Origin: Patescibacteria group bacterium
GTDB lineage: Bacteria; Patescibacteriota; WWE3; JAMCXX01; JBBTUG01
NCBI GenBank assembly: GCA_038063895.1
Contig: JBBTUG010000006.1
Location: forward strand, 6,701 to 70,700
Length of the DNA stretch: 64,000 nt
Direction of reading: 5' to 3'
Under the pieces are notes generated by a model that saw only the letters and a list, made by a program, of their open reading frames with translations, had not been told where the DNA came from and ran no database searches. Made by a program: the position numbers and the translations under genes. Positions within the stretch are counted from its first letter, which is position 1. Each line of letters starts with the position of its first letter. This document shows positions 11,571 through 59,090 of this stretch, piece after piece.

Positions 11571-12167
11571 ATGCCACACTCCATTCTACTAAGTAACTTA
11601 CCGCCTAGCGGCGGGTCTTTAACCCTTCGGGACAAAATTCTTTTGAGTCTTTTGTGTGTTGGGGCGATGGTTGAGACTACTTTAGCTGAAGCGTCTACGC
11701 CACAGACTATTGAATATGCTCTAAGTTCCTTGGAGCGGAAGGAGTTTATTCGAAAGAAGCGAGGTTCGATTAAGAGTACAATTTCTTACCTACTGGCCGA
11801 AAAACTTCTTCGGGCCAGCGGGTCGTATCGCAAGAGATCATTTCAGCTGACCGAGGAAGGGTTGAATACTCTTTTTTCCAAGTTTCCCACCCTTAAGTAT
11901 CGGAAGTTTAATTGGGACGGTCGTTGGCGTGTTGTGATTTATGATATCCGTGAACAGGATCACCGTCTCAGAGACCGGTTAAGAACAAGGCTTAAATCCC
12001 TCGGTTTTAAGTTTATGCAAAAAAGTGTTTGGATCTCGCCATATCCGATGGAAGCGGATCTGGAGGATTTTCTCCGAAAAGAAAATCTTTGGGGAAGAAT
12101 CTTCGTCTTTTCGGCGACTTTGCCGAAAAAGGAAAATCTAAAAATAATCCGATTATTTAATCTTTAA
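11571..12167 (+). CDS. PaaX-like family protein (winged-helix plus PaaX_C-like domain), paralog 1
   Basis: 'WDGRWRVVIYDIREQDHRLRDRLRTRLKSLGFKFMQKSVWISPYP' matches the PaaX C-terminal domain signature (W.G.W..V.Y.IPE..R..R..L...GFG.LQ...WISP). Confidence 0.5.
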   Translation: MPHSILLSNLPPSGGSLTLRDKILLSLLCVGAMVETTLAEASTPQTIEYALSSLERKEFIRKKRGSIKSTISYLLAEKLLRASGSYRKRSFQLTEEGLNTLFSKFPTLKYRKFNWDGRWRVVIYDIREQDHRLRDRLRTRLKSLGFKFMQKSVWISPYPMEADLEDFLRKENLWGRIFVFSATLPKKENLKIIRLFNL

Positions 12168-23871: not shown

Positions 23872-25283
23872 TGACCCTCCAGGAACTGAAGGATAAAAAA
23901 ATTGCGATTCTCGGATGCTCGATTGAGGGCCTATCCTCAGCTAGGTTTCTTTTAACTCACGGAATCAGTTTTACGGTTTTGGATAAACAGTGTTTGTCTG
24001 AATTAGGAGAAGAAGCCTTACAGTTATCTGGTAACCAATTAATTAATTGGGAACTTGGCGAAAATCATTTAGACCGCCTCGAAGATTTTGAGGTTATCTT
24101 CCGCACTCCCGGTTTTCCTTTGTGGAATCAACGTTTGCAGGCGGCCCTTGCCGCCGGGGCCGAGGTTACTTCCCAGACTAAATTATTCTTTAGTCTCTGT
24201 CCGTGTCCGGTGATCGGAGTTACCGGAACTAAAGGGAAAGGAACAACAGCCACCCTCATTTCTCTGATGCTTAAAAAATCCGGCCGAGATGTTTACCTGG
24301 GCGGGAATATCGGGACTCCTCCGCTTGATTTTCTAGATAAGTTAAATCCCAGTTCCTTTGCGGTTTTAGAATTAAGTTCGTTTCAGCTCGAGGATCTTAA
24401 GGTCAGTCCAAAAATCGCCGTAGTTTTATTGATCACGGCGGATCACCTAGTCTCGCAGTCTTCGGAAAGTCCCAACTATCACAAGACGGTAAAGGAGTAT
24501 GTCACGGCCAAAAAGAAACTGGTTCAGTTTCAAACAATTTCGGATACGGCGGTTATTAGCGCAGATTGGGAAACCAGTTTAGCGATGGAAAAGGAAACAG
24601 CGGCGGAGGCGTATTTTTTCAGCCGACAGCGCGAGGTTAAGCGGGGAACCTTCGTCCAGGATAAAACGATTATTTTTGTTGAACAAGGCAGGAAGGAAGA
24701 TATTATCTCTGTTTCGGAGTTGCTTCTGCGCGGAGAGCACAACTGGGAGAACGTTTGCGCGGCCGTGACCGTCGCAAAATTGTGCAAGGTGGAAAATACG
24801 GCAATTAGCTCGGTGCTTCGGACTTTTAGAGGTTTAGCGAACCGCCTGGAGTTTGTTGCTAGTGCGGGTGGAGTTAATTATTACAATGACTCTTTTTCCA
24901 CGACTCCGGAAACGGCCGTTGCCGCCCTGCGCGCATTTTCTGAGCCGCTGATTATTATTCTCGGCGGATCGGAAAAAGGGTCTGATTATACAGAGCTTGG
25001 CCGGGAACTTCACGAGGCGAAAAACTTAAAAGCCGTTATTCTGATCGGAAATACGGCCGGTAAAATTGAGTCAGCGGTGGTCCGCGCGGGAGGTTTCCCT
25101 CCGAAAATTGAAGTTATAAAAAATCTGCCGGATATGCCGTCAATTGTTTCCGCGGCAGCGAAAATTTCAGCACCCGGAGATGTTGTTCTTCTCTCGCCCG
25201 CCTGCGCCTCTTTCGATATGTTTAAAAATTATAAGGAACGCGGAAATCAATTTACACTGGGGGCTAAAAAAATATGCGCCTAG
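23871..25283 (+). CDS. murD: UDP-N-acetylmuramoylalanine--D-glutamate ligase
   Basis: 'IAILGCSIEGLSSARFL' and a 'GVTGTKGKGTTATLI' P-loop. Confidence 0.85.
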   Translation: MTLQELKDKKIAILGCSIEGLSSARFLLTHGISFTVLDKQCLSELGEEALQLSGNQLINWELGENHLDRLEDFEVIFRTPGFPLWNQRLQAALAAGAEVTSQTKLFFSLCPCPVIGVTGTKGKGTTATLISLMLKKSGRDVYLGGNIGTPPLDFLDKLNPSSFAVLELSSFQLEDLKVSPKIAVVLLITADHLVSQSSESPNYHKTVKEYVTAKKKLVQFQTISDTAVISADWETSLAMEKETAAEAYFFSRQREVKRGTFVQDKTIIFVEQGRKEDIISVSELLLRGEHNWENVCAAVTVAKLCKVENTAISSVLRTFRGLANRLEFVASAGGVNYYNDSFSTTPETAVAALRAFSEPLIIILGGSEKGSDYTELGRELHEAKNLKAVILIGNTAGKIESAVVRAGGFPPKIEVIKNLPDMPSIVSAAAKISAPGDVVLLSPACASFDMFKNYKERGNQFTLGAKKICA

Positions 25284-26827
25284 ATAAACTTCTTGCCGAC
25301 TTCGGAATTACCGAAACAGATGGCGGACCGGAAATTATCGGGATTACTGACGACTCCCGAAAAGTAAAACCAGGATATTTGTTCGTAGCAGTAAAAGGGT
25401 TGGAGCATGATGGGCACAAATACATCGAACAGGCAATTATGGCGGGAGCGTGTGCGGTTGTGTTCGATGTAAAGTCAAAAGTTTCCGCCCAAGGCGGATC
25501 CGCCGAGGGAGGAAAAAGTCAAAAGTCAAAATTTTCAGGCACTATTTTCGTGGGTGTGAGAGGTTCAAGAAAGGCCCTAGGGCTTCTTTGGGCGGCGTGG
25601 TACGGGTATCCGGCCAAATCGTTAAGAGTCATCGGTGTGACCGGGACGGACGGAAAAACAACGACAGCTAACCTTATCTACCACCTGTTGAAATCGGCCG
25701 GAAAAAAAGTTGGCCTAATCTCGACGATCAACGCTCAAATCGGGAACGATAGTTTTGAGACCGGTTTCCACGTGACCAACCCGGAGCCGGAGTTGCTCCA
25801 AAAGTTTTTAAGATTAATGGTTGATCGGGGCACGGAGTTTGCGGTTTTGGAAGTAACCTCGCACGGAATTGATCAGGAACGGATTGCCGGAATCGGTTTT
25901 GAGATTGCCGTGGTTACGAACGTGGCGCGGGAGCATCTCGATTACCACAAAACGTATGAAAATTATCTAAATACAAAAGGGCGTCTACTCGCTTCCGACA
26001 AGGTAAGTATTCTCAATCGGGACGACAGCTCCTTCTCTTATTTAAAGAGTGTTTCCGGAGGCGAGGTGCTCAGCTACGGCATTCACCAAAAAGCTGATTT
26101 TCAAGCCACCAAGGTTACGCTACTTGGGGAATCCGCCGTATTTACCTTGGAGCCCGGTTCCGTTGAAGTAAAAATTAATCTGCCCGGAGAATACAATATC
26201 GCTAACGCTCTTGCGGCGGCGGCCGCGGCCTTCACTGTTGGGCTGAGTGGGAAGCAAGTCGCTGCAGGGCTTCAAAGTTTCCAGACGCTTCCGGGGAGGT
26301 TTGAGGAGATAAAGACCGGACGGGATTTCCGGGTCGTGGTGGATTTCGCGCATACGCCCAACGCGCTTGAGAGTGTCCTGTCTATTAGCCGTAAAATCCT
26401 GATCATACCCACACCCTTAGGGTCAAGGCTTCCCGACCCTAAGGACGAGAAACCGCAAGAGCCAAAATTAATTGTAGTTTTCGGGTGCGCGGGGGAACGG
26501 GACAGTGGGAAGCGGCCGCTGATGGGTGAGATTGCAGGCCGGTTGGCGGATATCTCGATCCTGACCGCGGAGGATCCCCGGCGCGAGGATGTTAACGGAA
26601 TTATTGAGCAAATTGCTGCGGGATGCCAAAAATCGGGTGAGCATATATTTATTAAAGAACCTGACCGGCGGAAGGCGATCGAATTGGCAATAAATATGGC
26701 CAAGGCCGGCGACTTAATTATTATCACCGGCAAGGGGCACGAGAAATCAATGTGCTTCGGGACAACAGAGTATCCGTGGAGTGATCAGGAAGTAGCAAAG
26801 GGTATTTTAGAAAGGAATAACAAATAA
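25274..26827 (+). CDS. murE: UDP-N-acetylmuramoyl-L-alanyl-D-glutamate--2,6-diaminopimelate (or L-Lys) ligase; carries in-frame repeat insertions
   Basis: 'VIGVTGTDGKTTTANLI' P-loop and 'VTNVAREHLDYH'. An 'EDPRRED' motif retains the Arg typical of DAP-type enzymes. Confidence 0.85.
   Translation: MRLDKLLADFGITETDGGPEIIGITDDSRKVKPGYLFVAVKGLEHDGHKYIEQAIMAGACAVVFDVKSKVSAQGGSAEGGKSQKSKFSGTIFVGVRGSRKALGLLWAAWYGYPAKSLRVIGVTGTDGKTTTANLIYHLLKSAGKKVGLISTINAQIGNDSFETGFHVTNPEPELLQKFLRLMVDRGTEFAVLEVTSHGIDQERIAGIGFEIAVVTNVAREHLDYHKTYENYLNTKGRLLASDKVSILNRDDSSFSYLKSVSGGEVLSYGIHQKADFQATKVTLLGESAVFTLEPGSVEVKINLPGEYNIANALAAAAAAFTVGLSGKQVAAGLQSFQTLPGRFEEIKTGRDFRVVVDFAHTPNALESVLSISRKILIIPTPLGSRLPDPKDEKPQEPKLIVVFGCAGERDSGKRPLMGEIAGRLADISILTAEDPRREDVNGIIEQIAAGCQKSGEHIFIKEPDRRKAIELAINMAKAGDLIIITGKGHEKSMCFGTTEYPWSDQEVAKGILERNNK
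26412..26447 (+). repeat. 36-bp palindromic element, copy A (in-frame inside murE)
   Basis: Arms 'ccttagggtc'/'gaccctaagg' with loop 'aaggcttccc'. It encodes PTPLGSRLPDPK. Confidence 0.8.
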
Positions 26828-29680: not shown

Positions 29681-30835
29681 ATGAAAGAAATGGAAAACGA
29701 AAAGAAAAACATCGGAGTAATATTTGGCGGAATGAGCGCCGAATGCGAGGTATCTTTAGCAACGGGGAGATACGTTTACTCGCTGCTAAATAATAAAAAA
29801 TTTACCGGAACGCCATTTTATTTGGATAAAAAAGGCACTCTTTGGCAGGTTCCAGACAAACTGGTAATCCAAAATACGACGACGGATATCGAGCAGCGCC
29901 TGGAGAAGGACGCGAGCCGGGTAAATTTCGAGGACCTTCCCGGGAAAGTCAGCTGTGTTTTTAATGCGCTGTTGGGCAAGTACGGCGAGGATGGCTGTTT
30001 TCAGGCGATCTTGGAATTGTTGAAAATTCCTTACACCGGTTCAGGAATTCTCGCTTCCGCGTTGGGGATGGATAAAAAAGTCCACAAGAAAATGCTCTCC
30101 GGGGCGGGGTTTTTAGTGGCCAAAGATCTATTAATTCGTAATTCGGAATTCGATATTCGGAAAGTTACGGAAAAAGTTTCCAGGGAAATCGGTTTCCCCT
30201 GCGTTGTGAAGCCGACCCGGGAAGGTTCAAGTATGGGAGTGTCGGTGGTTAAAGAAGAAAAGGGTTTGGAAACAGCGTTCGAGTACGCCTTTAAGTATGA
30301 TCAGGAGGTTCTTGTCGAAGAGTATCTGAAAGGGATGGAGTTTACCTGCGTGGTTTGGGGCAACGACGATCCGAAAGCTATGCTCCCTACCGAAGTCGTG
30401 TTCGAGGGCGATTTTTTTACGTATGAAGGTAAATACATGCCGGGAAAAACCCAGACGATTACGCCCGCCCGGCTTTCGGAAGAGGGCTTGGCCGAGATAC
30501 AGCGCCAATCCGTGGCGATTTATCAGCTGATTGGTTGCCAGGGCTATGGCCGGGTTGACGGCTTTGTCGTTCCTAAGACCCTAAAGGTCGGGGAGCCCAG
30601 ACCTTTAGGGTCTTTGAGTTTGTCTGATATCTCAATTTACATCGCTGAGCCGCACACGGGAACAATTATGGTTCCTTCGTCTTTCGTTTTTCAACAGGCG
30701 GCGAAGTTCCGGATTGATCTGTCCACAGAATTCCATGGAAAAAAAGGTTCGATTCCGATGACCCCGCGCATTTTGGTAACAAAAATTATTGAGTTAGCCT
30801 TCGAAGCGTTTAGCAATAAGAAAGGATTATTATGA
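29681..30835 (+). CDS. ddl: D-alanine--D-alanine ligase (paralog 1; Lys-Tyr retained at the K215/Y216-equivalent position)
   Basis: ATP-grasp motifs 'FPCVVKPTREGSSMGVS' and 'FFTYEGKYMPG' (K at 30431-33, Y at 30434-36). The C-terminus is extended by a repeat insertion. Confidence 0.8.
   Translation: MKEMENEKKNIGVIFGGMSAECEVSLATGRYVYSLLNNKKFTGTPFYLDKKGTLWQVPDKLVIQNTTTDIEQRLEKDASRVNFEDLPGKVSCVFNALLGKYGEDGCFQAILELLKIPYTGSGILASALGMDKKVHKKMLSGAGFLVAKDLLIRNSEFDIRKVTEKVSREIGFPCVVKPTREGSSMGVSVVKEEKGLETAFEYAFKYDQEVLVEEYLKGMEFTCVVWGNDDPKAMLPTEVVFEGDFFTYEGKYMPGKTQTITPARLSEEGLAEIQRQSVAIYQLIGCQGYGRVDGFVVPKTLKVGEPRPLGSLSLSDISIYIAEPHTGTIMVPSSFVFQQAAKFRIDLSTEFHGKKGSIPMTPRILVTKIIELAFEAFSNKKGLL
30577..30612 (+). 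repeat. 36-bp palindromic element, copy B (in-frame inside ddl paralog 1)
   Basis: Perfect 13-bp arms 'gaccctaaaggtc'/'gacctttagggtc' with loop 'ggggagccca'. It encodes KTLKVGEPRPLG. Confidence 0.85.
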
Positions 30836-31884
30836 GCGGCATATTAAGAATTGGTTTATTTATCGGCGGGCTGTCTTCGGAAAAGGAAATCTCTTTGGAA
30901 TCAGGGCGTCACGTCTACAACAGTCTTGACCGGGAAAAGTATGAAGTTCTTCCGATCTTTGTCGATAATGAAGCCCATCTTTGGGAGATTGAGGAGGGGT
31001 TGCTGTGGAAAAATACCACCACAGATCTTAAAGATGCCCTCGGTAGCGGGGGAAGCCGGGTTTACTACGAAGATTTAAGAAATAAGATTGATTTTGCTTT
31101 TATTTGCCTCCACGGAAAATACGGCGAGGACGCCTTCCCGGGACTTTTTGAGATACTGGGAATTCCCAACAACGGCGCCTCCGTTTTGGGAGGAGCATTG
31201 TCAATGGACAAATACCGCCAAAGGATGGTTTTGCAGGCGGCTGGGATCGATACTCCAAAGTATTTTCCAATCGAAAATTCCAAGTTCCAAATTCCAAATT
31301 CCAAAATATTTGATGAAGTAGAAGCTGTGTTAAGTTACCCGGTAATGGTGAAGCCGTCGCGGGAGGGAAGTTCAACCGCACTGCATAAGGTGAATAACCG
31401 GGGAGAACTTGAAGCCGCACTTTCCGATGCCTTTATTTACGATAAAGTCGCCTTGGTCGAGGAAGTTTTGGTCGGAACGGAGTTAACGACATTGGTTTAT
31501 GGCGAAGGCGAAAATATTAAAGCCCTGCCGCCATCGGAACTTCTCCGGGGAGGGGATTTCCTTACCGCCCAGGAAAAATTTCTGCCGGGTGGGGCGCAGA
31601 TGATAACCCCGCCGCGGCTACCTGTGGAAGTAGTTGAGGAGGTAAAGAGAGCAGCGGTGAATACGTTTCAGGCGTTAAGTCTTAAGGTCTATAGCCGGAT
31701 CGATTCATTTTACGTTCCGGGTCGGGGAGTGGTAATTTTGGAGCCGAATAACCCGCCGGCGATGACGCCCTCGACGGCTTTGTGGCTTGAGGCTGCCGAA
31801 GAAAACCTTAACGCTTCCCAATTGTTAGATGATCTGATCCGTATCTCCCTTGTCCTCCACGCCGCCAAACTCGGCCCACTTTAA
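30832..31884 (+). CDS. D-alanine--D-X ligase (Ddl paralog 2; Phe replaces Tyr at the Y216-equivalent position)
   Basis: 'YPVMVKPSREGSSTA' and 'FLTAQEKFLPG' (F codon at 31579-31581). About 350 aa. Confidence 0.75.
   Translation: MSGILRIGLFIGGLSSEKEISLESGRHVYNSLDREKYEVLPIFVDNEAHLWEIEEGLLWKNTTTDLKDALGSGGSRVYYEDLRNKIDFAFICLHGKYGEDAFPGLFEILGIPNNGASVLGGALSMDKYRQRMVLQAAGIDTPKYFPIENSKFQIPNSKIFDEVEAVLSYPVMVKPSREGSSTALHKVNNRGELEAALSDAFIYDKVALVEEVLVGTELTTLVYGEGENIKALPPSELLRGGDFLTAQEKFLPGGAQMITPPRLPVEVVEEVKRAAVNTFQALSLKVYSRIDSFYVPGRGVVILEPNNPPAMTPSTALWLEAAEENLNASQLLDDLIRISLVLHAAKLGPL
31278..31306 (+). repeat. Heptanucleotide tandem repeat (ttccaag/ttccaaa x4) inside the ddl paralog 2 coding sequence
   Basis: Seen directly. 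It encodes 'KFQIPNSKIF'. The unit length is not a multiple of 3. Confidence 0.7.
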
Positions 31885-31885
31885 G

Positions 31886-31914
31886 TTGACAAATTGCCTA
31901 TAGTGTGGTATAAT
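31886..31914 (+). promoter_or_regulatory. Perfect consensus sigma70 promoter: TTGACA - 17 nt - TG-n-TATAAT
   Basis: 'ttgaca' at 31886-31891, the 17-nt spacer 'aattgcctatagtgtgg', and 'tataat' at 31909-31914 with an upstream TGg extended -10. Confidence 0.6.
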
Positions 31915-31919
31915 AAACT

Positions 31920-32420
31920 CAGAGTCTTGAAAAAAGATTCCAAATCCCGAAAGGAGGTGCCATTCGATTATCTTTTTGGCGCTTTATTTGGGAATCCCCA
32001 ATCGGCAAGGGGATTTTGGGAGGTAAGTAACTCCCTAAGACGACGGCCACATTGATGGAACGCCCGTCGCCGAGACAGAAGGAAGCTGCCTTTACGGTCC
32101 GAACTGACTATCAGAGGCATCTGGTGGTTGGTTTGGGAGCACAGAGTTACGAGGATAACTCTGCGGTTAACCGGAAAGGATGGGTCGGATGAGGAAAGCA
32201 TCCCACCTGCTTCTGTCTTGAAGGAAATGGAGAAAGTTCCCGGCTAACAACCCCGTCTCCTAGCCAAGGTTGTTGTTCATTCTAACGTTGGAGAGCCTAG
32301 CGTCCTCGCGCAAAGCTCTATGCACCTTGTATGTTGCCACGATGAATACCGGTAAGGGAGAGAACCGAACGTTGGTCCCAACCCGTGATCCCACAGGGAT
32401 CACCATTCGCAATCGAGGAG
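31920..32420 (+). ncRNA. Candidate about 500-nt structured non-coding RNA or long leader (family unidentified), GC-rich
   Basis: There is no + strand ORF of 60 aa or more between the consensus promoter and the small ORF at 32427. GC content is elevated. Long-range complementary segments are present, for example 'agacagaag' at about 32073 with 'cttctgtct' at about 32207, plus local hairpins such as 'ggaatcccc/ggggatttt'. Confidence 0.35.
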
Positions 32421-32426
32421 GTTGCA

Positions 32427-32768
32427 ATGGGTAACAATTTCGTGGCACGGATCGCCTGGCGTCTGACCAAGGAGCTCGGGCTGACGCTCGAGATTCTTGA
32501 GACAGAAGTCATGCGGTCAGGCGAAGGCCCGGTTTGGAACGCGATTTACGTCCGGGTGAAGCGTATGAATCCCAGTACGTTGGGAATCATCGTTGCCACC
32601 GGTCGTGAGTTCGGTTCCAAATACCCGACCCTTTATCACGTACACTGCGGTACGTACGTGAATAAGTACTGGTCGGGGCGTCATACTCTGCGGGTTCTCG
32701 CCACCACAGCGCTCATATGCAAGATGTATGAGTTGCTGAAGGAGGAGGAGCTGCAGGCGCTGACGTAA
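32427..32768 (+). CDS. Hypothetical 113-aa protein with a strong SD ('gaggagg'), within the GC-rich module
   Basis: 'atcGAGGAGGttgcaATGggt'. The ORF is GC-rich and is followed by an intrinsic terminator. Confidence 0.4.
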   Translation: MGNNFVARIAWRLTKELGLTLEILETEVMRSGEGPVWNAIYVRVKRMNPSTLGIIVATGREFGSKYPTLYHVHCGTYVNKYWSGRHTLRVLATTALICKMYELLKEEELQALT

Positions 32769-32785
32769 CCGTGCTCGCGCCAAAG

Positions 32786-32827
32786 TGCCATGTTGGGGTA
32801 ACCTAACGTGGCATTTTCTTTTTTTAA
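32786..32827 (+). terminator. Rho-independent terminator
   Basis: Stem 'tgccatgttgggg'/'cctaacgtggca' followed by 'ttttcttttttt'. Confidence 0.55.
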
Positions 32828-32958
32828 TAGTAAATTTTCAATCGATTCATCTCATTTATTTTTGTTCGGTACTACTGATCTATTTTCCCCGGTTTTATAA
32901 ACATTTATCTACCAATATATACTTGCTATAGCAGTATGTTTTCGTCATAATCAAAGGG

Positions 32959-33840
32959 ATGAAGATAAGAAAGTGTAAATTAGAAGGTGACTCTAGGGAG
33001 TCCTGCCGCGAGCTCTTCTTAGTTGCCGGCTGGGATATAAAGACTACCAACTCCTTTTCCCGGTTTCTGGCCGAATTGGATGCAACCCCGGCCTCCAAGA
33101 TATTCATCGATTCAATGATCAAGTTTAAAGAAATGTATCCGCCGCTTCGAACCGGTCCCCGTCAGGTTGACTATTTAGGGCTCCTTCGCGGCGAAAATGA
33201 GTATAGGGCAATGAAACGGGCTCAATTTTACCTCAATAAGAAAGACCTTGTGAAGGTTTCCGGTGGACTAGGCGGCAAAAGATTAGTTTTGACAACCCGG
33301 GCCCACCGTATTTTTTACGAAGACTACCCTTTGGCCAAACTACGTCGGGAAAAGTGGAATGGGCTGTGGACAATAGTGATGTATGACTTACCGGAGAAAG
33401 AAAAAAGCTTTCGGGAGTATTTAAGACTAAAGTTAAAAGGACTTGGTTTCGGCAGTCCGCAGGAAAGTGTTCTAATTTCGCCATTGCCAATTGCCGCTCC
33501 GACCCAGGCGTTAATAGAGGGGGAGCAAGCTGAAAGATACGTTTGGGTGGTTTCGGCTCAACGGGTTTTAGGTTTGGACAATCGCGAGGTGGCGGAGAGA
33601 GCGTGGAAACTTGATGAACTTAACATGCTTTATAAATGTCTCTTAAAAGTTTCTCCGGTCGTTAAGGGGAAGAATGATAAGAGTCTTCTCGATGCGTGGC
33701 GCCGCTGCTTTTTAGCGCTGGACAATGTTGACCCGTATCTGCCGCTTGAACTTCTTCCTAAAGATTGGCAAGGAGAGAACTGCCGAAAAGTGGCTGAATC
33801 GTCAGGGTTCGCCGGGTTAATAAAGTCAATTTTTCAGTAA
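32959..33840 (+). CDS. PaaX-like family protein, paralog 2
   Basis: 'WNGLWTIVMYDLPEKEKSFREYLRLKLKGLGFGSPQESVLISPLP' is the same PaaX_C-like signature as the gene at 11571. Confidence 0.5.
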   Translation: MKIRKCKLEGDSRESCRELFLVAGWDIKTTNSFSRFLAELDATPASKIFIDSMIKFKEMYPPLRTGPRQVDYLGLLRGENEYRAMKRAQFYLNKKDLVKVSGGLGGKRLVLTTRAHRIFYEDYPLAKLRREKWNGLWTIVMYDLPEKEKSFREYLRLKLKGLGFGSPQESVLISPLPIAAPTQALIEGEQAERYVWVVSAQRVLGLDNREVAERAWKLDELNMLYKCLLKVSPVVKGKNDKSLLDAWRRCFLALDNVDPYLPLELLPKDWQGENCRKVAESSGFAGLIKSIFQ

Positions 33841-33913: not shown

Positions 33914-35383
33914 TTATCTATAAATATCAGGGAGGTCGTTTTCGAAGAGGATCAGAGAGTTGGGTTTGACTAATTGCGGGATTATCTCTTTGGTTGCCTG
34001 ATCGAGGGAGTCAGTGATGAATAATCTCTGACCTATTGTTCCGTTGTTCCATTGTTTCATTGCTGTGGCGTTGCTCCAGCCGCCTTCTCTAATTCCTTGC
34101 AGAAGGGCTGCACGGTTGGTTTTGTTGACGATCACGGCGTAATCAAAATTTTCGGCAATCAGTTCTCCTAACTTTTTATTCTCTTCGAACTGCTGTTTTC
34201 CCAATTCCACTATTCCCGGAGTCACTATTATTTTTGGGTAGTTGGGTAAACGGGTAATCAGTTTTATTGCGGCCCGGGCGCCCTCCGGGTTGCTGCTGTA
34301 GGCGTCATCAATTATTAACGAGTTTTCGGGGCCGTGGATTAGTTGTAAGCGGTGTTCCGGTGGGCTGACCTTGAATAGGCCGTGCCTTATTTCCTCTTCA
34401 GTTAAGCCTAAATATGTTCCTACAGCAATAGCCGCCAGGGCATTGCTGACGTTGTGGTCTGCCGGGAGGTTGAGGGTGTAAGTGTCTTGTTTTACCCTGA
34501 ACTCGGAGGATTCGGGAGAGGATGAAATAATTTCCGCCTGAAGATCGGCTTCAACTCCGTGCGGTTTGCTAATCCGGGAGTAACCTACTTTATTTATTAT
34601 AGTTTTTAGATAGAGTTCTACGCATGGTTGGGAGTACAGATTGAAAACCGCCAAGCCCTCCTCCGGAAGGGATTGAATCAATTCCGATTTAGCTTCCACG
34701 ATATTTTCCAAACTCCCGAACCGCTCCAGGTGCTGATTAGTTATTCCGGTGATAATCCCGATTTTAGGTCGAACCATCCGGCAGAGTTCCGCAATCTCGC
34801 CTTTTTTGTAGGCGCCCATTTCGACGATAAAGACTTCGTGCTCCGGCTTTAATTTCATATTGATGATACCGGCTATGCCGAAAAGCGTATTGTAGCTTTT
34901 TGGAGTCGCCAAAACTTCGTACTTCGTTGCGAGAACAGTTGCTAGGATTTCCTTCACCGTGGTTTTGCCGTAACTGCCGGTAATTCCGATGACCAATAGG
35001 TTTTTGTGTTCCGTGATAATTTTTTGGGCACGGAGAACCGTCCGGCGGCGGTTGATGATTTCGTATGGCCGGAGAACTAGTAAAGATATTAGAAGTAACG
35101 GCTGGGGGAACAGCTGAAGAAGAATAACGATAATTACACCCTTAAGGTCAAGGCTCCCCGACCTTAAGGGTGTGGCCCAGGGCTGAAATAGAAATATGGG
35201 AGCTAGGCTGAGGGCAGTGGCGCATATGAAAAGAAACCTGGCCTTCGAAGTCCACACCAGCGCCTTTTTCTTTTCCAGTCCTAAACGGAACAAATTTTGA
35301 ACGGTCCATTTAATGAAGCGGACTAGGTCGTATTCCAAAACCTGCAGGGCGTAAAGCTGGTTGTAAAGCGGGATGTACCTCAT
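33914..35383 (-). CDS. murF: UDP-N-acetylmuramoyl-tripeptide--D-alanyl-D-alanine ligase, with an N-terminal hydrophobic extension containing a repeat insert
   Basis: 'LLVIGITGSYGKTTVKEIL' P-loop and 'IGIITGITNQHLERFGS'. The start is set at Met 'MRYIPLYNQL' (35383) because the longer ORF overlaps the upstream hydrolase gene. The two genes overlap in an ATGA arrangement. Confidence 0.85.
   Translation of the reverse strand: MRYIPLYNQLYALQVLEYDLVRFIKWTVQNLFRLGLEKKKALVWTSKARFLFICATALSLAPIFLFQPWATPLRSGSLDLKGVIIVILLQLFPQPLLLISLLVLRPYEIINRRRTVLRAQKIITEHKNLLVIGITGSYGKTTVKEILATVLATKYEVLATPKSYNTLFGIAGIINMKLKPEHEVFIVEMGAYKKGEIAELCRMVRPKIGIITGITNQHLERFGSLENIVEAKSELIQSLPEEGLAVFNLYSQPCVELYLKTIINKVGYSRISKPHGVEADLQAEIISSSPESSEFRVKQDTYTLNLPADHNVSNALAAIAVGTYLGLTEEEIRHGLFKVSPPEHRLQLIHGPENSLIIDDAYSSNPEGARAAIKLITRLPNYPKIIVTPGIVELGKQQFEENKKLGELIAENFDYAVIVNKTNRAALLQGIREGGWSNATAMKQWNNGTIGQRLFITDSLDQATKEIIPQLVKPNSLILFENDLPDIYR
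35137..35172 (+). repeat. 36-bp palindromic element, copy C (in-frame inside the murF N-terminal region)
   Basis: Perfect arms 'cacccttaaggtc'/'gaccttaagggtg' with loop 'aaggctcccc'. It encodes PLRSGSLDLKGV in murF. Confidence 0.85.
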
Positions 35384-36119: not shown

Positions 36120-36155
36120 CACCTTAAAGATCATGGCTCTTCGACCTTTAAGGTG
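36120..36155 (+). repeat. 36-bp palindromic element, copy D (intergenic, in the 5' UTR of the hydrolase-murF operon)
   Basis: Arms 'caccttaaagatc'/'gacctttaaggtg' with one mismatch, and loop 'atggctcttc'. Confidence 0.8.
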
Positions 36156-45072: not shown

Positions 45073-47952
45073 ATGAGCAAAATTGAAGCCGTTCCCGATT
45101 TTCCCCTGAATGAAAGAGAAACTCTTGCGGGTTGGAAAAAAGACGGAGTGGAAAAGAAATATTTAGCCAGAAATGAGTCTTCCCCGAAGCGGTTCCGGTT
45201 TATCGATGGCCCAATTACGGCTAATAACCCGATGGGGGTTCACCACGCCTGGGGCCGGACCTACAAAGATTTTTTCCAGCGTTATAAAAATATGCAGGGC
45301 TTTGCCCAGAGGTTCCAGAACGGTTTTGACTGCCAAGGTCTTTGGCTCGAGGTTGAAGAGGAAAAGAGCCGGGGCTTTAATTCGAAGAAAGACATTGAAA
45401 ATTTCGGCTTGGCTAACTTCAGCCATGCCTGCCGGGCCCGGGTCGAGAAATATTCCGCCATTCAAACTGAACAATCGCAGCGGCTGGGGATGTTTATGGA
45501 TTGGGGAAATTCGTATTATACGATGTCCGAGACGAACAACCTTTATATCTGGCACTTTTTAAAAAAATGCAATGAAAAAGGCTGGTTGTATAAAGGCGTG
45601 AACTCGATGCCCTGGTGCGTCCGCTGCGGCACGGCGATTTCCGCTCACGAACTCTCCGACGAAGGTTATAAAATAGTGGAACACGAATCAGTTTACGTGA
45701 AGTTTCCGTTAGTTTCGGACGATTCCAAATCCACGGCAACAAGTCTTCTAATTTGGACAACGACGCCTTGGACGCTTCTCGCCAATGTGGCCGTGGCCGT
45801 GAATCCCGATTATTCCTACGTTAAAATCAGAACGGAAAGCCGGCCGGAAGAGTTATTAATCGTAGCCGAAAACCGTCTTTCCGTAATCCCGGACGGCTAC
45901 CAGGTGCTTGAAAAAATCGCGGGGAAAGACCTGGTTGGGAAGACTTACCGTGGGCCTTTTGATGAACTAGGGGCGCAAAAAGAAGTGCAGCACCGGGTAA
46001 TTGACTGGCCGGAAGTTTCGGAAACGGAGGGAACGGGACTGGTGCACATCGCTCCCGGCGCCGGCGAGGAGGACTTTATATTAGGGAAAAAATTTAAACT
46101 CCCGGTTTTGGCGCCGCTTGATGAGTTTGGGATTTACTTGCCCGGTTACGGCGAATTTACCGGTAAGGATGCCCGCCGGATTAATGCCGAAGTGTTTGCT
46201 TCTCTGGAAGCGAAAAAATTCCTTTTTAAAACCGAAAAAATAAAACACAGTTATCCGCATTGCTGGCGGTGTAAGGAGCCGTTGGTTTTCCGGGTGACGG
46301 AGGAGTGGTTTATTAAGGTTGACCCGATTCGTCCTCTGCTAAAGCAGCTAACTGAAAAGATTGACTGGCGGCCGGATTACGTCGGGAAAAGGATGCAGGA
46401 TTGGTTGTTGAATATGAACGACTGGCCGATCTCCCGCCGGCGATATTGGGGGCTGGCGCTGCCGTTTTATGAATGTCCGAATAATCACTTAACTGTCGTC
46501 GGTTCGAAAGAAGAACTAAGACAGTTGGCGGTGGAGCCGGAAAAGGTTGACCACTTGCCGGAACTGCACCGGCCGTGGATTGATGAGATAAAAATTAAAT
46601 GTCCGCAGTGCGGGACGACAGTGGCCCGGGTGAGTTACGTCGGTGACTGCTGGCTGGACGCGGGGATCGTTTCCTTTTCGACTTTAAAGTACCTCGAGGA
46701 TAAAAGTTATTGGGAGAAATGGTTTCCGGCGGAAATGGTGACGGAATACGTGGCCCAGGTGAAACTTTGGTTTTACTCCCTACTTTTTATGGCCGCGACT
46801 CTTGAAGAAAGAGCGCCTTTTGAGAAAGTTTTTACCGACGGGTATGTGGTGGATGAAAAAGGGGAAGTGATGCATAAATCGAAAGGGAATGCGATCTGGT
46901 TTGACGAGGCGGTGGAGAAGATGGGGGCGGATATTATGCGCTGGGTTTATATGCGCGCCGATAATGCTAAGGATATAAGGTTCGGTTACGGCATTGGTGA
47001 CGAGGCCCGCCGGCGTTTTTTCCTGATTTTATGGAATAGCCTGAAGTTCGTGCTGGATAACCGGGAGGTTGACGGAGTGCCGGTAGGGAAGTTATCGCAG
47101 GGGGTTGGAAAATCACTGCCGGTCCTCGACCGCTGGATTCTATCCCGCCTCAACAGCACGCTAAAGCTGGTGACAGAGGCGAATGATGATTATCACCCCC
47201 AGCCCGGGGCGTTGGCGATTGAAGGTCTGGTAAATGACTTATCCACCTGGTATATAAGGCGCAGCCGCAACCGGGTCGGACCGGCGGCGGAAAATCAGGA
47301 GGATAAAGAGTCTTTTTACCAAACCGCTAATTCCGTTTTTTCGGTTCTGGTCAGGATGCTCTCTCCGTATACGCCTTTCTGGGTCGAGCGGATTTATAAA
47401 TACTTGGGCGGGGAAAAGCTCTCGGTTCATCTTGAAGACTGGCCGGTTGTAGAGGAACTACGGATTGATGCTGAGCTTGAAAAGGAAATGGCGTTAGTCC
47501 GGCAGATTTGCGAGGCGGGTCACGCGGCGCGGAAAGCCGCTAAAATTAAAGTCCGACAGCCACTTGCTTCGCTCGATGTCAAAGTTTCCACCAAAGGTGG
47601 ATCCGCCTTGGGCGGACAAAATTCAAGATTAATAATTTCTGAAGATATAAAAAAACTTGTACTGGCGGAGCTTAACGTGAAACAGCTGAAGTTTACCGAA
47701 GAGGCGGGTCTGAAAGAGATGACGGTGGAATATGATTTGAATATCACTCCTGAACTGAAAGCTGAGGGCGAGGCGCGGGAGCTGATCCGTTCTATTCAGG
47801 AGCTGCGGAAAGAAAAAGGCTGCCGGCTGACGGACAAGATTGTGGTTTCGGCGTCGGCCTGGCCGGAGGCTTTTGAAGCCCTAATTAAGCGGGAAACTTT
47901 AACGGCAGAACTAAAACAGTCCTCCGATCCTCTTTCCATCACAGTTTTATAA
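45073..47952 (+). CDS. ileS: Isoleucine--tRNA ligase (type 2-like; atypical HIGH region 'GVHHAWG', KMSKS as 'MHKSKGN')
   Basis: 'KDFFQRYKNMQGF', 'FDCQGLWLEVE', 'DWPISRRRYWGLALPFYEC' and a zinc-binding 'CPQCG'. 959 aa. Confidence 0.75.
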   Translation: MSKIEAVPDFPLNERETLAGWKKDGVEKKYLARNESSPKRFRFIDGPITANNPMGVHHAWGRTYKDFFQRYKNMQGFAQRFQNGFDCQGLWLEVEEEKSRGFNSKKDIENFGLANFSHACRARVEKYSAIQTEQSQRLGMFMDWGNSYYTMSETNNLYIWHFLKKCNEKGWLYKGVNSMPWCVRCGTAISAHELSDEGYKIVEHESVYVKFPLVSDDSKSTATSLLIWTTTPWTLLANVAVAVNPDYSYVKIRTESRPEELLIVAENRLSVIPDGYQVLEKIAGKDLVGKTYRGPFDELGAQKEVQHRVIDWPEVSETEGTGLVHIAPGAGEEDFILGKKFKLPVLAPLDEFGIYLPGYGEFTGKDARRINAEVFASLEAKKFLFKTEKIKHSYPHCWRCKEPLVFRVTEEWFIKVDPIRPLLKQLTEKIDWRPDYVGKRMQDWLLNMNDWPISRRRYWGLALPFYECPNNHLTVVGSKEELRQLAVEPEKVDHLPELHRPWIDEIKIKCPQCGTTVARVSYVGDCWLDAGIVSFSTLKYLEDKSYWEKWFPAEMVTEYVAQVKLWFYSLLFMAATLEERAPFEKVFTDGYVVDEKGEVMHKSKGNAIWFDEAVEKMGADIMRWVYMRADNAKDIRFGYGIGDEARRRFFLILWNSLKFVLDNREVDGVPVGKLSQGVGKSLPVLDRWILSRLNSTLKLVTEANDDYHPQPGALAIEGLVNDLSTWYIRRSRNRVGPAAENQEDKESFYQTANSVFSVLVRMLSPYTPFWVERIYKYLGGEKLSVHLEDWPVVEELRIDAELEKEMALVRQICEAGHAARKAAKIKVRQPLASLDVKVSTKGGSALGGQNSRLIISEDIKKLVLAELNVKQLKFTEEAGLKEMTVEYDLNITPELKAEGEARELIRSIQELRKEKGCRLTDKIVVSASAWPEAFEALIKRETLTAELKQSSDPLSITVL

Positions 47953-51006: not shown

Positions 51007-51032
51007 TTTATCCTTAACATCCGATAAAAAAA

Positions 51033-51068
51033 CACCCTAAAGGTCGGTGGAGGTTGACCTTCAGGGTG
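51033..51068 (+). repeat. 36-bp palindromic element, copy E (intergenic, at the rpmA 3' end; terminator-like)
   Basis: Arms 'caccctaaaggtc'/'gaccttcagggtg' with one mismatch and loop 'ggtggaggtt'. It is followed by 'taaatgttttt'. Confidence 0.75.
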
Positions 51069-51080
51069 TAAATGTTTTTC

Positions 51081-52406
51081 TCAACGATCCTCTCTCGGGC
51101 AGTCATCGAACGCAGGGTTCGAGCATACCGTCATCCGCCTTCCCATCTTCATTGGTGCGTGGCAGAACGGACACTGTCCAAGTCCCGTATTAACTTTCGG
51201 CGTCTTAATTCGTTGGCTGCCGACCGGAACGTAAGGAACCCCAAGATTCCACATCCCCGGCTGTGCAACTGACTTCGGACACAGGTGGTTCGCGAAAGCA
51301 AAGTCGCAGCCAGGGCATTGCCACTCTGAGGGGCGGGCAGGAAAGCCTTCCCGTTGATATTTCTGGTAAGTCGCAATCGCCAATTTCAGGCTGACCAGCG
51401 TTTCTTTCCAGAGCCGTGAATCGAAGGGAATGGGTATCTTTTCGAGGCGCATCGGATTGAGGGTTAGTCGGTGGACCCACAACGAAACGTTCTCCGCTTT
51501 AATCCCAAGTCCGGAAAAAGCCTGCATTGCCCAGCTGGCATACAGCGCTAATTGGAGCTGACAGTCCTGATGGTCCAGCTCGGAGTGGATATCGATGCCG
51601 GTCACTTTGTGGTCGATGATCCGGACCGAATACTGGCCGTCGTGCTCAGTGAGAATAACGAGATCAACGGCTCCGTTTAATCCCCATTTTTCTCCCTCAG
51701 TCATCGTGAGGCCGGTACCGGAAAGCAGCCAGTTGAGGTCAATAACCGGGAGACGCATCTCCGCGTCCCACCAGACCAGCTTCGTACCGCTGCGGGCTAA
51801 GGCTTCTCCGTAGGCTTTGACAGACACCATCTGGTGATGATGCCAAAGGAAACGGATAACCTGCTCCAGGTAGTAACGCATCGTCGGAATTTCCCAATCG
51901 TTTTGGGTGCCTATTCTGTGCCGGAAAAACTTTTCATCCGTAAACTTTCCTAAGATGTTGCTCAACCCCCACCGCGTCCGAAAAAATCCGACTTCGCTTA
52001 GTGACTTTTGTTCGGACAGCTGACGGGCGAGGTGGTAAACGGTACCGAAAGCGTTGCCCGGAGAGCTGGGTTGGCATGGATGTTCTTTCCGCAGCTGGTA
52101 GGCAAGCGGACAACCAAATCCCAGCATCTGAACCGCGAGCGTCGGGGTCATCCGGTTTGCCGGCCGGTGTTTTAATATCACCTCGCTGGTCGGTATGCAG
52201 TTTTCGCAAAGCCGTGATTTCGGCGCTTTCTTCCGAGGCAAGCCCGGTAAACTTTTTCCGGGTAAATAAAGGCGGCCGGTTCGTAAAGAGAAATTCCCAC
52301 AGCGGGCGCAAACCGCCGGGTGGTTCCAATTCCGGGATCTGACTAAAGCCGGCTTACGCATCGCTAAATGCGGCTGCATAAGCACCAGTTGTGTCGCTAA
52401 AGTCAT
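51081..52406 (-). CDS. PD-(D/E)xK (RecB/Cas4-like) nuclease family protein with Fe-S-type cysteine cluster
   Basis: 'GAVDLVILTEHDGQYSVRIIDHKVTG' supplies nuclease motifs II and III. 'QLQLALYA' is the RecB-family QhxxY motif. The N-terminus has 'CARCG' and the C-terminus 'CPGCDFAFANHLC'. Confidence 0.5.
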   Translation of the reverse strand: MTLATQLVLMQPHLAMRKPALVRSRNWNHPAVCARCGNFSLRTGRLYLPGKSLPGLPRKKAPKSRLCENCIPTSEVILKHRPANRMTPTLAVQMLGFGCPLAYQLRKEHPCQPSSPGNAFGTVYHLARQLSEQKSLSEVGFFRTRWGLSNILGKFTDEKFFRHRIGTQNDWEIPTMRYYLEQVIRFLWHHHQMVSVKAYGEALARSGTKLVWWDAEMRLPVIDLNWLLSGTGLTMTEGEKWGLNGAVDLVILTEHDGQYSVRIIDHKVTGIDIHSELDHQDCQLQLALYASWAMQAFSGLGIKAENVSLWVHRLTLNPMRLEKIPIPFDSRLWKETLVSLKLAIATYQKYQREGFPARPSEWQCPGCDFAFANHLCPKSVAQPGMWNLGVPYVPVGSQRIKTPKVNTGLGQCPFCHAPMKMGRRMTVCSNPAFDDCPREDR

Positions 52407-53224: not shown

Positions 53225-54514
53225 ATGAACCTTCGCGTTAAAAAAGTGGCCGGGAATACGTTGTTCCAATTAGCTGGAAAGGCGGTTTCAATCACCTGTT
53301 CGCTGCTGGCGACGGCGTTAATTACCCGCCGGTTTGGTGAGAATGGCTACGGCCTGTTTGCCCTAATGACGACTTTCGCCGCCTATTTCTACCTGGTGGT
53401 GGATTTCGGCATTAATGCCATCGTGATCCGGGCGGTGACGGAAAATAAGGAAAAGATCGCCGATTACTTCCGCAACCTCTACACTTTCCGTTTTTTGTTC
53501 TCTTTAGTTATCTTTTTAGTTGTTCTTTGCCTTCTGCCCCGGATTAATTTTAAAACCTCCGAACTCAGTCTTGTCCGGTGGGGGATTGCGATCAGTTTAT
53601 TTACGGTTATTTCCCAATCCCTTTATATCTCCGCCAACGCGATCTTCCAAAAAATATCCCGCTACGATCTTTCCAACCTCGCCTTAACCGCCGGAAATAT
53701 TCTGGCCCTACTGCTGACCCTTCTCTTCCTTTTCCTAGGCAAAGATTTGCTGTGGATGGTAGGGGCGACGGTAGTGGGAGCCTTTTTGTCCGTGGCTTTT
53801 TCCTTTGCGCTGATCCGGCCTTTCGTGCACTCCCTTCGGCCGTCGTTCGAGACGAAAGTGTGGAAAGAAATATTACTGCCGTCCTTGCCGGTAGGACTGG
53901 GGCTAATCACGATGGTGATTATGGCCAAGACGGATATGTTTTTGCTCTCAACAATTACTTTGCCCTCAGCTTTGGGCTATACTAACGGCCAGGCTTTAGG
54001 CTTCTACGGTCTGGCCTACAAAGTTTTTGAGACCGCCCTGGTTTTCCCGACCTTCTTTATCAACGCCCTCTACCCGTTACTCTTGGAGGATCATTTTTCC
54101 GACCGGGAGAAACTTAAAAACACCGTGAAGAAATCGGCTCTGTTTCTCTTTCTCATCGGGCTGGTGGCAGCTATTGTAGGCATTATTTTCGCCCCCTTTG
54201 CTATTACGGTTCTGGGTGGGAGCCGTTTCTTACCCGCCGTCGCGCCGCTGCAAATTCTCCTGCTGTCGCTGCCGATCTTCTTTCCTTCGGCTCTGTTTGT
54301 CTGGCTGTTAGTTACGCTAGGGCGGGAAAAATATCTGCCCTTAATTTACGCGTTCGGATCCGTATTTAATATCGCCGGCAATCTGTATTTTATTCCCCGT
54401 TACGGTTTTCTCGCTTCCGCGTGGCTGACCGGAATTACGGAAGTAATTGTTACCGTTTTGACGGCCTATTTATCTTTAAAAATACTTTTTGCCAAGGAAG
54501 GTTCCCGTGCTTAA
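53225..54514 (+). CDS. wzx: Polysaccharide flippase (Wzx/MOP superfamily)
   Basis: 429 aa with about 12 TM segments. The N-terminus 'LRVKKVAGNTLFQLAGKAVSITCSLLATALITRRFGENGYGLFAL' is a polysaccharide_synt signature. An extended -10 'TGcTATAAT' at 53205-53213 suggests a leaderless transcript. Confidence 0.7.
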   Translation: MNLRVKKVAGNTLFQLAGKAVSITCSLLATALITRRFGENGYGLFALMTTFAAYFYLVVDFGINAIVIRAVTENKEKIADYFRNLYTFRFLFSLVIFLVVLCLLPRINFKTSELSLVRWGIAISLFTVISQSLYISANAIFQKISRYDLSNLALTAGNILALLLTLLFLFLGKDLLWMVGATVVGAFLSVAFSFALIRPFVHSLRPSFETKVWKEILLPSLPVGLGLITMVIMAKTDMFLLSTITLPSALGYTNGQALGFYGLAYKVFETALVFPTFFINALYPLLLEDHFSDREKLKNTVKKSALFLFLIGLVAAIVGIIFAPFAITVLGGSRFLPAVAPLQILLLSLPIFFPSALFVWLLVTLGREKYLPLIYAFGSVFNIAGNLYFIPRYGFLASAWLTGITEVIVTVLTAYLSLKILFAKEGSRA

Positions 54515-55427
54515 TCCCCTGATATCCATTGTTATTGCCTCAAGCCGAAAAGATAGGAATAAGCTTTCGGCGTGTTTGGATTCCATTTACAAGGGATCTT
54601 TTCCGGCTGCTTCTTTTGAAGTTATTGTTGTCGACAGCGGGGCGGGGGACGAGGCAAAAGATTATCTTTTGGAGACAGCGAAAAGTCGCCCCAACCTTGT
54701 GCCTGCCTTTCCCGGCTTTGGTAATATCGGTCCGGCGCGGGCGCGAAATATTGGGATTAAGCTGGCCAAGTCGTCCTTGGTGGCTTTCACAGATGATGAT
54801 ATTTCGGTTGATCCGCAATGGCTGGAAAAGATTACTAAGGCTTTTCTTGAGCATCCCGAAGTGGCCGCTGTTGGCGGAATGACTTTGCCCCCGGACTCCT
54901 TGAGGCGAAATCCGTTTGCCGAATACGAATCGTCTATCTACCAACGCTATCTGAAAAATGGTTGCGCGGGCAGTTACTTATCAACGACGCGGGACGAGCA
55001 CCCGGTATTTACCGGCAATATTGCTTATCGGAAGGAGGTTTTAGAAAAAGCCGGGGGTTTCAGCGAAAATTTTCCGCCTTTTGTCTATGGGGAAGATGGG
55101 GATTTAAAGGAACGGGTGCTAAAAATGGGCGGCCGGTTTTTGTACATCGACTCGGTAAATTACCACAATACGGAGTACAGTCTCGCCAGCTTTTGGCAAA
55201 AAGAGGAGAAACGGGGGGCGGGGATTTTGCGCTATCGGAAAGACCACTACGGGACGTCTAGGCTTACACCTTTAAGATCGGGGAGCCGTGACCTTAAAGG
55301 TGTTTTGCATATGGTTATGAACTTAATACACCTTAAAGGTGTAAAAAATATTATGGGTATGTTTATTCTGGGTTTGGCGGTTGTCGCCCGACAAGTGGGG
55401 AAAATTCGTTACTATGGAAAAGTCTAA
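54489..55427 (+). CDS. GT2 family glycosyltransferase (3' end altered by palindromic-element insertions)
   Basis: 'ISIVIASSRKDRNKLSACLDSI...FEVIVVDSGAGDE...AFTDDDISVDPQW'. The C-terminal roughly 50 aa are encoded by repeat copies F and G. Confidence 0.6.
   Translation: MPRKVPVLNPLISIVIASSRKDRNKLSACLDSIYKGSFPAASFEVIVVDSGAGDEAKDYLLETAKSRPNLVPAFPGFGNIGPARARNIGIKLAKSSLVAFTDDDISVDPQWLEKITKAFLEHPEVAAVGGMTLPPDSLRRNPFAEYESSIYQRYLKNGCAGSYLSTTRDEHPVFTGNIAYRKEVLEKAGGFSENFPPFVYGEDGDLKERVLKMGGRFLYIDSVNYHNTEYSLASFWQKEEKRGAGILRYRKDHYGTSRLTPLRSGSRDLKGVLHMVMNLIHLKGVKNIMGMFILGLAVVARQVGKIRYYGKV
55267..55342 (+). repeat. 36-bp palindromic element copy F (55267-55302) plus a solo arm G (55329-55341), in the 3' end of the GT2 ORF
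   Basis: Arms 'cacctttaagatc'/'gaccttaaaggtg' with loop 'ggggagccgt'. A solo 'caccttaaaggtg' follows. Together they encode TPLRSGSRDLKGV...HLKGV. Confidence 0.8.
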
Positions 55428-59012: not shown

Positions 59013-59090
59013 TTACACTCTAACTCTACCAAACTCCTCCCCCAACTTCCACAACTTGACATTTATGGCTTAATTCAGTAACATGACAAT

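Follow-up and report, generated by a model that had tools for sequence, protein, structure and literature searches.

The window analysed here is a 64,000-nucleotide stretch of a Patescibacteria (candidate phyla radiation, CPR) genome from Hainich groundwater (assembly GCA_038063895.1, contig JBBTUG010000006.1, positions 6,701 to 70,700 of the forward strand). Our subject is a short palindrome, copy B, which lies within the gene for a ligase-family enzyme, Ddl1, and which is one copy of a small hairpin repeat. The features at this locus are as follows.

29681..30835, plus strand: Ddl1, a D-Ala-D-Ala-ligase-family ATP-grasp enzyme of 384 amino acids (aa), matched by the Pfam N- and C-domains.
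30575..30628, plus strand: the loop insert of Ddl1, KTLKVGEPRPLGSLSLSD, 18 residues long (299-316), 12 of which are derived from the palindrome.
30575..30614, plus strand: copy B of the hairpin repeat, with loop GGGGAGCCCA on the sense strand, translated as KTLKVGEPRPLG(S).

Positions 30577-30612 read GACCCTAAAGGTC-GGGGAGCCCA-GACCTTTAGGGTC, an exact 13-bp inverted repeat with a 10-nt spacer, and its pairing reaches outward to 15 bp (AAGACC...GGTCTT, 30575-30614). Copy B is in frame in the open reading frame (ORF) of Ddl1 and is read K-T-L-K-V-G-E-P-R-P-L-G. As RNA, it has a folding energy of -29.5 kcal/mol (z = -5.8). The original prediction, made from the letters of the window, had described a perfect 13/10/13 palindrome in ddl paralog 1, had given the encoded peptide as KTLKVGEPRPLG and the length of the protein as about 384 aa, and had named the palindrome as a copy of a repeat; all four points were confirmed by the exact sequence, the in-frame translation, the ORF length and the recovery of six copies in the window. 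Since an identical Ddl1 protein has been recorded from three contigs (sources listed as NCBI, Logan and ENA), copy B is no assembly artefact.

Exactly six full copies of the repeat were found in the window by a profile search and again by an exhaustive covariance-model search, and the orientation of each copy was defined by its loop. The five copies other than copy B are listed below.

26412..26447, minus strand: degenerate copy in MurE (25274..26827), in the linker ahead of the C-terminal domain, encoding TPLGSRLPDPKDE in the context ...PTPLGSRLPDPKDE...
35136..35173 (search match 35137-35172), minus strand: perfect 14-bp-stem copy in MurF, encoding TPLRSGSLDLKGV.
36120..36155, minus strand: intergenic copy, separated by 14 nt from the ATG (36105) of a downstream alpha/beta-hydrolase gene on the minus strand.
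51032..51069 (search match 51033-51068), plus strand: intergenic copy with a diverged loop, GGTGGAGGTT.
55266..55303 (search match 55267-55302), plus strand: in-frame copy in a family 2 glycosyltransferase (GT2; 54507..55427), encoding TPLRSGSRDLKGV.

The family unit is about 36-40 nt long, with a 14-bp stem and the 10-nt loop GGGGAGCCNN, and the family consensus is (A)CACCYTWAAGGTC GGGGAGCCNN GACCTTWARGGTG(T). In the covariance-model search the copies were solitary and spaced 1-15 kb apart in the window. Chance does not explain copy B. The arm motif, with up to two mismatches allowed, was counted 11 times in the window against 1.7 expected, a number reached by none of 100 shuffles, and all window hairpins that have a 10-nt loop and pair at 12 or more of 13 positions proved to be members of the copy B family. 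Genes (MurE, Ddl1, MurF and GT2) hold four of the six window copies, all in frame, and two copies are intergenic. The MurF copy occupies the loop separating two hydrophobic N-terminal segments, the GT2 copy lies in the C-terminal region of its protein, and the copy at 51032..51069 lies between the convergent rpmA (end 51006) and a 441-aa ORF (end 51081).

Beyond the window, a loop-based pattern scan of metagenomes detected the family on three contigs only, which are Hainich H41 0.2 um assemblies holding window sequence, or sister replicates of these, and added three distinct copies. A 617-aa membrane protein in L013 bears a fifth in-frame copy, PPPGRSGLPDLPGV, and the sites occupied by the family include polA-adjacent and membrane-protein ones. 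A stem-pattern search of 185,579 representative genomes gave no hairpin with both the stem and the loop, and five unrelated hairpins with other loops. The scan of viral contigs for the family gave 0 matches, BLAST searches of phages and plasmids with the family returned chance fragments only, and our literature searches turned up no account of elements of this kind from Patescibacteria. A known RNA family was rejected as a candidate, as there was no Rfam match at the gathering score and only microRNA-hairpin noise was obtained (E at least 0.003, far under the thresholds).

The two arms of the hairpin covary. When nine copies are aligned, 96% of the cells of the 14-bp helix are paired, and five helix pairs have changed on both sides, including C-G to U-A, U-A to A-U and U-A to G-C. 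The covariation score of these nine copies was reached by none of 500 shuffles, and the signal collapsed once the register was slid. Folding energies of the copies range from -18 to -30 kcal/mol. Each of four stem variants was seen at a pair of unlinked sites; a fifth variant, CCCGGAAGG/CCTTCCGGG, was seen once. Because the four variants recur at unlinked sites, the compensated changes may stem from diverged source copies, and the recurrence fits copying from such sources. Even if the changes were inherited in this way, the aligned copies indicate that arm complementarity was preserved during the diversification of the family.

Other identities for the hairpin were also tried and rejected. For a dimeric-protein operator or a general ACC-N5-GGT site, the window excess was wholly due to the elements themselves, and CACC-N5-GGTG occurred once. 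For an intrinsic terminator, copy B is located in the middle of a gene, the terminator scan made no call at the 51033 copy, and no T-tract signature was seen. For a piggyBac-like TTAA duplication, the TAAAG/CTTTA and GGAA/TTCC variants show the supposed flanks to be inverted rather than direct repeats.

The reading frames of the coding copies are restricted by the stem sequence. With stems that contain TTAA or TTTAA, the frame giving TPLRS is the sole stop-free frame in each orientation, and the coding copies read TPLRS. Copy B reads the KTLKV frame, and its loop ends in CCCAGA where a TGA stop occurs in most other copies.

Ddl1 matches PF01820 (4.6e-23), PF07478 (8.8e-41) and Ddl entries of the PDB (5.7e-48), and the Pfam and PDB sequence alignments end at residue 297/298, immediately ahead of the element. 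From the sequence, it had been suggested that extra C-terminal sequence begins at the element, possibly by read-through. We aligned Ddl1 with 60 homologues as well as with its neighbouring paralogue Ddl2 and with DdlB of E. coli. What follows the element (written EPHTGTIMVPSSFVFQQA ... KKGLL or ISIYIAEPHTGTIMVPSSFVFQQAAKFRIDL ... KKGLL) is kept in 60/60 homologues, insert-free ones included; the 68 residues downstream of the insert are conserved family-wide with or without inserts, and the element causes no change of reading frame. For the downstream region, this is the alignment outcome that had been named beforehand as refuting the prediction; the stretch encoded by the palindrome does not belong to the conserved Ddl sequence. 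In the AlphaFold model (pLDDT 87, pTM 0.87), the insert forms the tip of a beta-hairpin with strands 288-298/317-325, residues 301-310 having a mean pLDDT of ~70, and the segment past the element takes the form of the strands and helix that end a canonical Ddl. Over its full length, the model fits solved Ddl structures, with Foldseek TM-scores of 0.87-0.91 (target-normalised). Since the C-terminus is conserved family-wide and models as canonical Ddl, read-through is refuted. As judged from the alignment and the model, the C-terminus after the element is native and the element is a tolerated loop insertion. The protein is indeed longer than typical Ddl, as had been noted, but the origin first proposed for the extra length does not hold; its sources are the loop insert and a second extra segment of ~20 residues, KFRIDLSTEFHGKKGSIP, found in most aligned relatives whether or not they have a loop insert.

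In homologues of at most 62% identity, a two-residue turn (VV-G-E-DIY) is found in place of the 18 residues of the window, and the bare turn is present also in one closer homologue, P0019 (65%). Because most of the closest Ddl1 relatives (P0001-P0018) carry variable inserts of 16-50 residues at the element site, the hairpin tip is considered an insertion hot spot.

Several further characteristics of the ligase genes were observed. Positions 29681-31884 contain two adjacent Ddl paralogues, which are separated by a NUDIX gene in L001, L004 and L025. Ddl1 and its whole subfamily read E-P-H-T-G where E-P-N-N stands in Ddl2 and E-A-N-T in E. coli DdlB, E-x-N being the C-terminal Mg/ATP motif of canonical Ddl and the form present in Ddl2, and the subfamily has a specific extra beta-hairpin of ~20 aa at residues about 343-360. 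Judging from its sequence, Ddl1 may be other than a standard D-Ala-D-Ala ligase.

The history of the copies was traced in the syntenic loci of relatives, L001 (80% Ddl1 identity), L002 and L004, none of which has an intact family copy. The MurE copy is absent from these three loci, from L022 and L023, and from 15/15 aligned MurE homologues, and on this comparison it is a clean gain. In L001, the Ddl1 counterpart is degenerate and of the same length, while the MurF counterpart is degenerate, one codon shorter and keeps GGGGAG; 4/13 stem pairs are left in each. The GT2 copy is matched in L020 and L021 by degenerate versions of equal length, in which 7 and 2 pairs, respectively, remain, and in the L020 gene a 14/14 5' arm is retained next to a loop and a 3' arm that have been replaced. 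Given such degenerate counterparts, equal or almost equal in length, in relatives, the Ddl1, MurF and GT2 insertions are old and predate the splits. In the GT2 element region, L020 and L021 are identical to each other at 22/36 positions and to the window at 19/36 and 14/36; the three genes are in a near-star relationship (75.5-77.1% identity). Such a pattern gives a hint that blocks were replaced, through conversion or re-insertion, rather than eroded by point decay. With regard to MurF itself (33914-35383, minus strand), the protein is without the usual N-terminal Mur ligase domain match, and its N-terminal region with the two hydrophobic segments is conserved in L001, L002 and L004.

Other small palindromes were found in coding loops of this clade. 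A second family consists of a 30-nt in-frame insert made of two tandem 15-nt mini-hairpins, [TCCRCC-NNN-GGYGGA]x2, around GGATCC, and its three copies are always read S-x-x-G-G-S-A-x-x-G.

25484-25513: family 2 copy in the MurE N-domain, SAQGGSAEGG, a clean 30-nt insertion in comparison with L001, L022 and L023.
47587-47616: family 2 copy in a class I aminoacyl-tRNA synthetase, STKGGSALGG.
L022 1715-1744: family 2 copy in the MurE linker, SAQGGSASSG, in the same linker as the family 1 copy of the window.
55327..55343: mini-palindrome TACACCTTAAAGGTGTA, 23 nt past the GT2 copy, 17/17 identical in L020 and L021.

All three family 2 copies lie directly 3' of AAAGTY, and for the two MurE sites AAAGTW is present even in the orthologues that have no insert, which suggests that this family uses a chosen target without duplicating it. 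A third palindrome, CCGACTCCGGGAGTCGG (17 nt, GACTC/GAGTC, read PTPGVG), is located at the Ddl1 beta-hairpin tip in L002 (10922-10938), L024 and L025. It is 17/17 identical in the three lineages, five four-fold sites included, although the genes are only 66-68% identical and only 25% of four-fold sites are identical gene-wide, so that the identity has p ~0.001. Small palindromes in coding loops are thus recurrent in the clade and partly conserved at the DNA level. Mini-palindromes of the form TACACCTT(A/T)AAGGTGTA (55327-55343; L011 8807-8823) are like the outer stem of the element minus its inner part, and the one in L011 is positioned 11 nt ahead of a start codon, after a TATACT box.

We consider it fairly probable that copy B is a member of a lineage-restricted family of miniature, non-autonomous palindromic repeats that are passively translated in permissive loops. 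The unit would be a non-autonomous stretch of DNA, coding for nothing itself, of which copies are made at new places or passed from one existing copy to another, and the copying would depend on the hairpin or at least preserve it. As the genome is mostly coding, many copies would fall in genes. Survival in essential genes would then be explained by one or two stop-free frames in register together with a permissive loop site. The sites seen are the Ddl1 beta-hairpin tip, the MurE domain linker, the GT2 C-terminal region, and the loops between hydrophobic segments of MurF and of the 617-aa membrane protein. An in-frame element is read there as a Pro/Gly/Ser-rich loop of 12-13 residues. The data demonstrate the family itself, its covarying hairpin, the in-frame use, the location in loops, the absence or degeneracy in relatives and the native Ddl1 C-terminus; mobility, its dependence on the hairpin and the selective filter are the parts of this explanation that we infer.

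A number of observations weigh against such an explanation. The copies seen number only about 10. There was neither a target-site duplication nor a conserved flanking target in the flanks of the nine copies, and no transposase gene or gene like that of the REP-associated tyrosine transposase (RAYT; REP, repetitive extragenic palindrome) was present in the 64-kb window and ~20 kb of flanks. The in-frame copies have no orientation bias with respect to transcription (3 forward, 2 reverse), and the window copies have none with respect to GC skew (3+/3-, the skew being positive over the whole window). Despite the age of the Ddl1, MurF and GT2 insertions, 12-13 of 13 pairs are still formed in the window copies, which is not what a purely selfish, decaying repeat would predict. 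In GT2, the net gain over distant homologues is only ~4 residues, which is no simple 36-nt addition. As for candidate genes near the copies, the gene lists of the window and flanks contain no Nop, Tas or Cas, and three ORFs by the copies (441 aa at 51081..52406, 149 aa and 204 aa) gave no Pfam/NCBIfam match.

In a variant of the above explanation, old sites would undergo concerted evolution by gene conversion or re-insertion, and copy B would be the recent renewal of an ancient insert that had otherwise decayed. We regard this as possible but doubtful. It is favoured by the GT2 region, where L020 and L021 are closer to each other than either is to the window and the genes form a near-star, by the intact L020 5' arm next to a replaced loop and 3' arm, and by the MurE copy, which is apparently younger (it has no counterpart in any aligned relative) and yet has degenerated further than the copies in Ddl1 and MurF, which are older. 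However, L020 and L021 may be mere sisters, the sample sizes are tiny, and Ddl1 and MurF are without an outgroup for polarity. The main alternative, which we think unlikely, is that the hairpins are cis-acting elements selected by the host, working in DNA as cruciforms or binding sites for proteins, or in RNA as stem-loops with roles in processing, pausing, ribosome-binding-site masking or termination, and that the protein loops are a tolerated by-product. This would account for the 12-13 of 13 stem pairs held by the window copies against 2-7 in the orthologous copies of relatives, for the compensated stem changes, and for the unchanged DNA of two small palindromes in three lineages each, namely CCGACTCCGGGAGTCGG at the Ddl1 loop (17/17, with 25% of four-fold sites shared, p ~0.001) and the GT2 mini-palindrome (17/17). 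Positions 14 nt (full copy) and 11 nt (L011 mini-palindrome) ahead of start codons, and one between convergent genes, also agree with it. On the other hand, the host genes are functionally unrelated, polA-adjacent and membrane-protein sites included, the orientation relative to mRNA is mixed, the asymmetric conserved loop with covarying arms is unlike a dimeric duplex-binding site, the T-tract signature of a terminator was not found, and the copies are lost or degenerate in close relatives that retain the same genes.

Intrastrand template switching can generate palindromes, and copy B could therefore have arisen locally by such switching or by quasi-palindrome correction, or be an assembly artefact, and in either case be unrelated to the other loci. 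Apart from this general source of palindromes, the Ddl1 loop is a hot spot with inserts differing by lineage, which is in line with a local origin. This is nevertheless very improbable and is refuted by the recovery of the family, as the nine copies have a common arm consensus, spacing and loop GGGGAGCC, and the same sequence has been recorded from several sources. We give practically no credence to the idea that the insertion produced a read-through or a new C-terminal extension of Ddl1: the end of the Pfam and PDB alignments at 297-298 and the excess over canonical Ddl length speak for it, and the 68 conserved downstream residues, modelled as canonical and read in an unchanged frame, speak against it.

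A broader idea, which we put forward as speculative and rather unlikely, is that the lineage may have an active system writing and maintaining several families of tiny palindromic cassettes in permissive loops of essential genes, namely the 38-nt hairpin of copy B, the 30-nt double mini-hairpin of family 2 and the 17-nt palindrome at the Ddl1 loop of sister lineages. If this were true, the long-term perfection at the DNA level would imply a hairpin-specific copy-and-correct mechanism or a function of DNA or RNA structure in the host, and the protein loops would be the footprint of a nucleic-acid-level element and not of protein evolution.

Other parts of the window were also inspected. The stretch of some 1 kb that separates ddl2 from a PaaX-like gene (31885-32958) contains short overlapping ORFs only; it gave no Rfam match even at E <=1, and relatives lack it in their syntenic loci. 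PaaX-like genes, with a Cas2-like middle domain, occur twice in the window, at 11571..12167 and at 32959..33840. The ORF adjoining the 51033 copy (51081-52406, minus strand, 441 aa) is Cys-rich and without a Pfam/NCBIfam match; by eye only, it has a candidate PD-(D/E)xK/Cas4-like look (IIDHK...QLQLALY and C-terminal Cys clusters). At 59000-64000, GC falls to 0.40 (60-64 kb), and genes for AbiEi/AbiEii, a PhdYeFM antitoxin and Bro-N are present. Its continuation in another assembly (L017 8500-18491) has Type III restriction-modification-like methylases and a helicase, and a GIY-YIG gene and a ParE toxin are found in L018/L019 and not in L017, so the assemblies differ. This region is probably a variable defence island.

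Among known systems, in-frame palindromic elements are best known from Rickettsia, at least as that literature is presented in PMC10969869. Rickettsia palindromic elements (RPEs) are described there as palindromic repeats of about 100-150 bp that add 30-50 residues in frame (Ogata et al. 2000, PMC10969869). The present family resembles RPEs, as far as that source describes them, in being dispersed palindromes in frame in unrelated housekeeping genes, translated at fold-compatible sites, and in having a small-genomed host with a host-dependent lifestyle and no associated transposase known (PMC10969869). The RPE-type insertion into unrelated ORFs is seen here in five copies in five different proteins. 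In contrast, the Patescibacteria unit is 36-40 nt long, adds 12-13 residues and has no sequence similarity to the RPEs as given there, and RPEs, by the same description, belong to Alphaproteobacteria and have a conserved peptide in a single frame, whereas two frames and both orientations are used here.

In size and structure the unit is comparable with REPs and their hairpin-forming doublets (REPINs), which are mobilised by RAYT and are 20-40 nt, hairpin-forming imperfect palindromes with diverged subfamilies and preserved complementarity (PMC3116915). Because each arm is itself quasi-palindromic (ACC-N5-GGT), the unit resembles a miniature inverted doublet of REPIN type. REPs are, however, extragenic by definition (PMC3116915), whereas 4/6 window copies are intragenic, and there are no doublet clusters, conserved GTAG-like 5' tetranucleotide or RAYT gene in ~84 kb. 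With MITEs, which are miniature transposable elements bearing inverted repeats, the unit has in common that it is short, non-coding and dispersed, with terminal inverted repeats and occasional in-frame fusions; it differs in being without a target-site duplication or an internal region beyond the 10-nt loop, in falling below the usual length of at least 50 bp, and in that the window has no parent insertion sequence (IS) with matching ends. The traits of IS200/IS605-type elements (insertion 3' of a fixed tetra- or pentanucleotide and strand bias) were not seen, as no flank is conserved and the copies are 3+/3- on one GC-skew arm; the separate family 2 is the one that lies 3' of AAAGTY, in 3/3 cases. 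In heterocystous cyanobacteria, palindromic repeats of ~21-27 nt apparently move as such, as Elhai and co-workers are said to have reported in 2008. These small dispersed repeats are alike in the tiny palindromic unit and differ in sequence and host. Tandem interspaced guide RNA (TIGR) arrays and their tigRNAs share a 36-nt unit, a conserved loop and an occurrence in parasitic bacteria including CPR, and they differ in being tandem arrays by a Nop-domain Tas gene, with spacers that are not complementary to each other (PMC12045711). A TIGR or CRISPR unit was thus rejected, since the copies are solitary with complementary arms, and no array and no Tas gene are nearby. The element is nearest to RPEs in behaviour (PMC10969869) and nearest to REP/REPIN in size and hairpin nature (PMC3116915), and it misses defining features of each system, namely the length and homology of RPEs, the location and (so far) the RAYT of REPs, the duplication of MITEs and the array of TIGR.

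The unit in Patescibacteria is three to four times smaller than an RPE and lies within the core peptidoglycan enzymes MurE, Ddl and MurF. It provides a concrete DNA-level source for part of the loop insertions by which these CPR proteins depart from reference families and which break alignments to hidden Markov models and PDB entries, and it calls for caution in annotation, since such proteins are intact and neither frameshifted nor extended. Hot-spot loops take different palindromes in different lineages. With perfect copies in the window and decayed orthologous copies in relatives, it becomes a testable question whether these elements are selfish, homogenised by conversion or functional.

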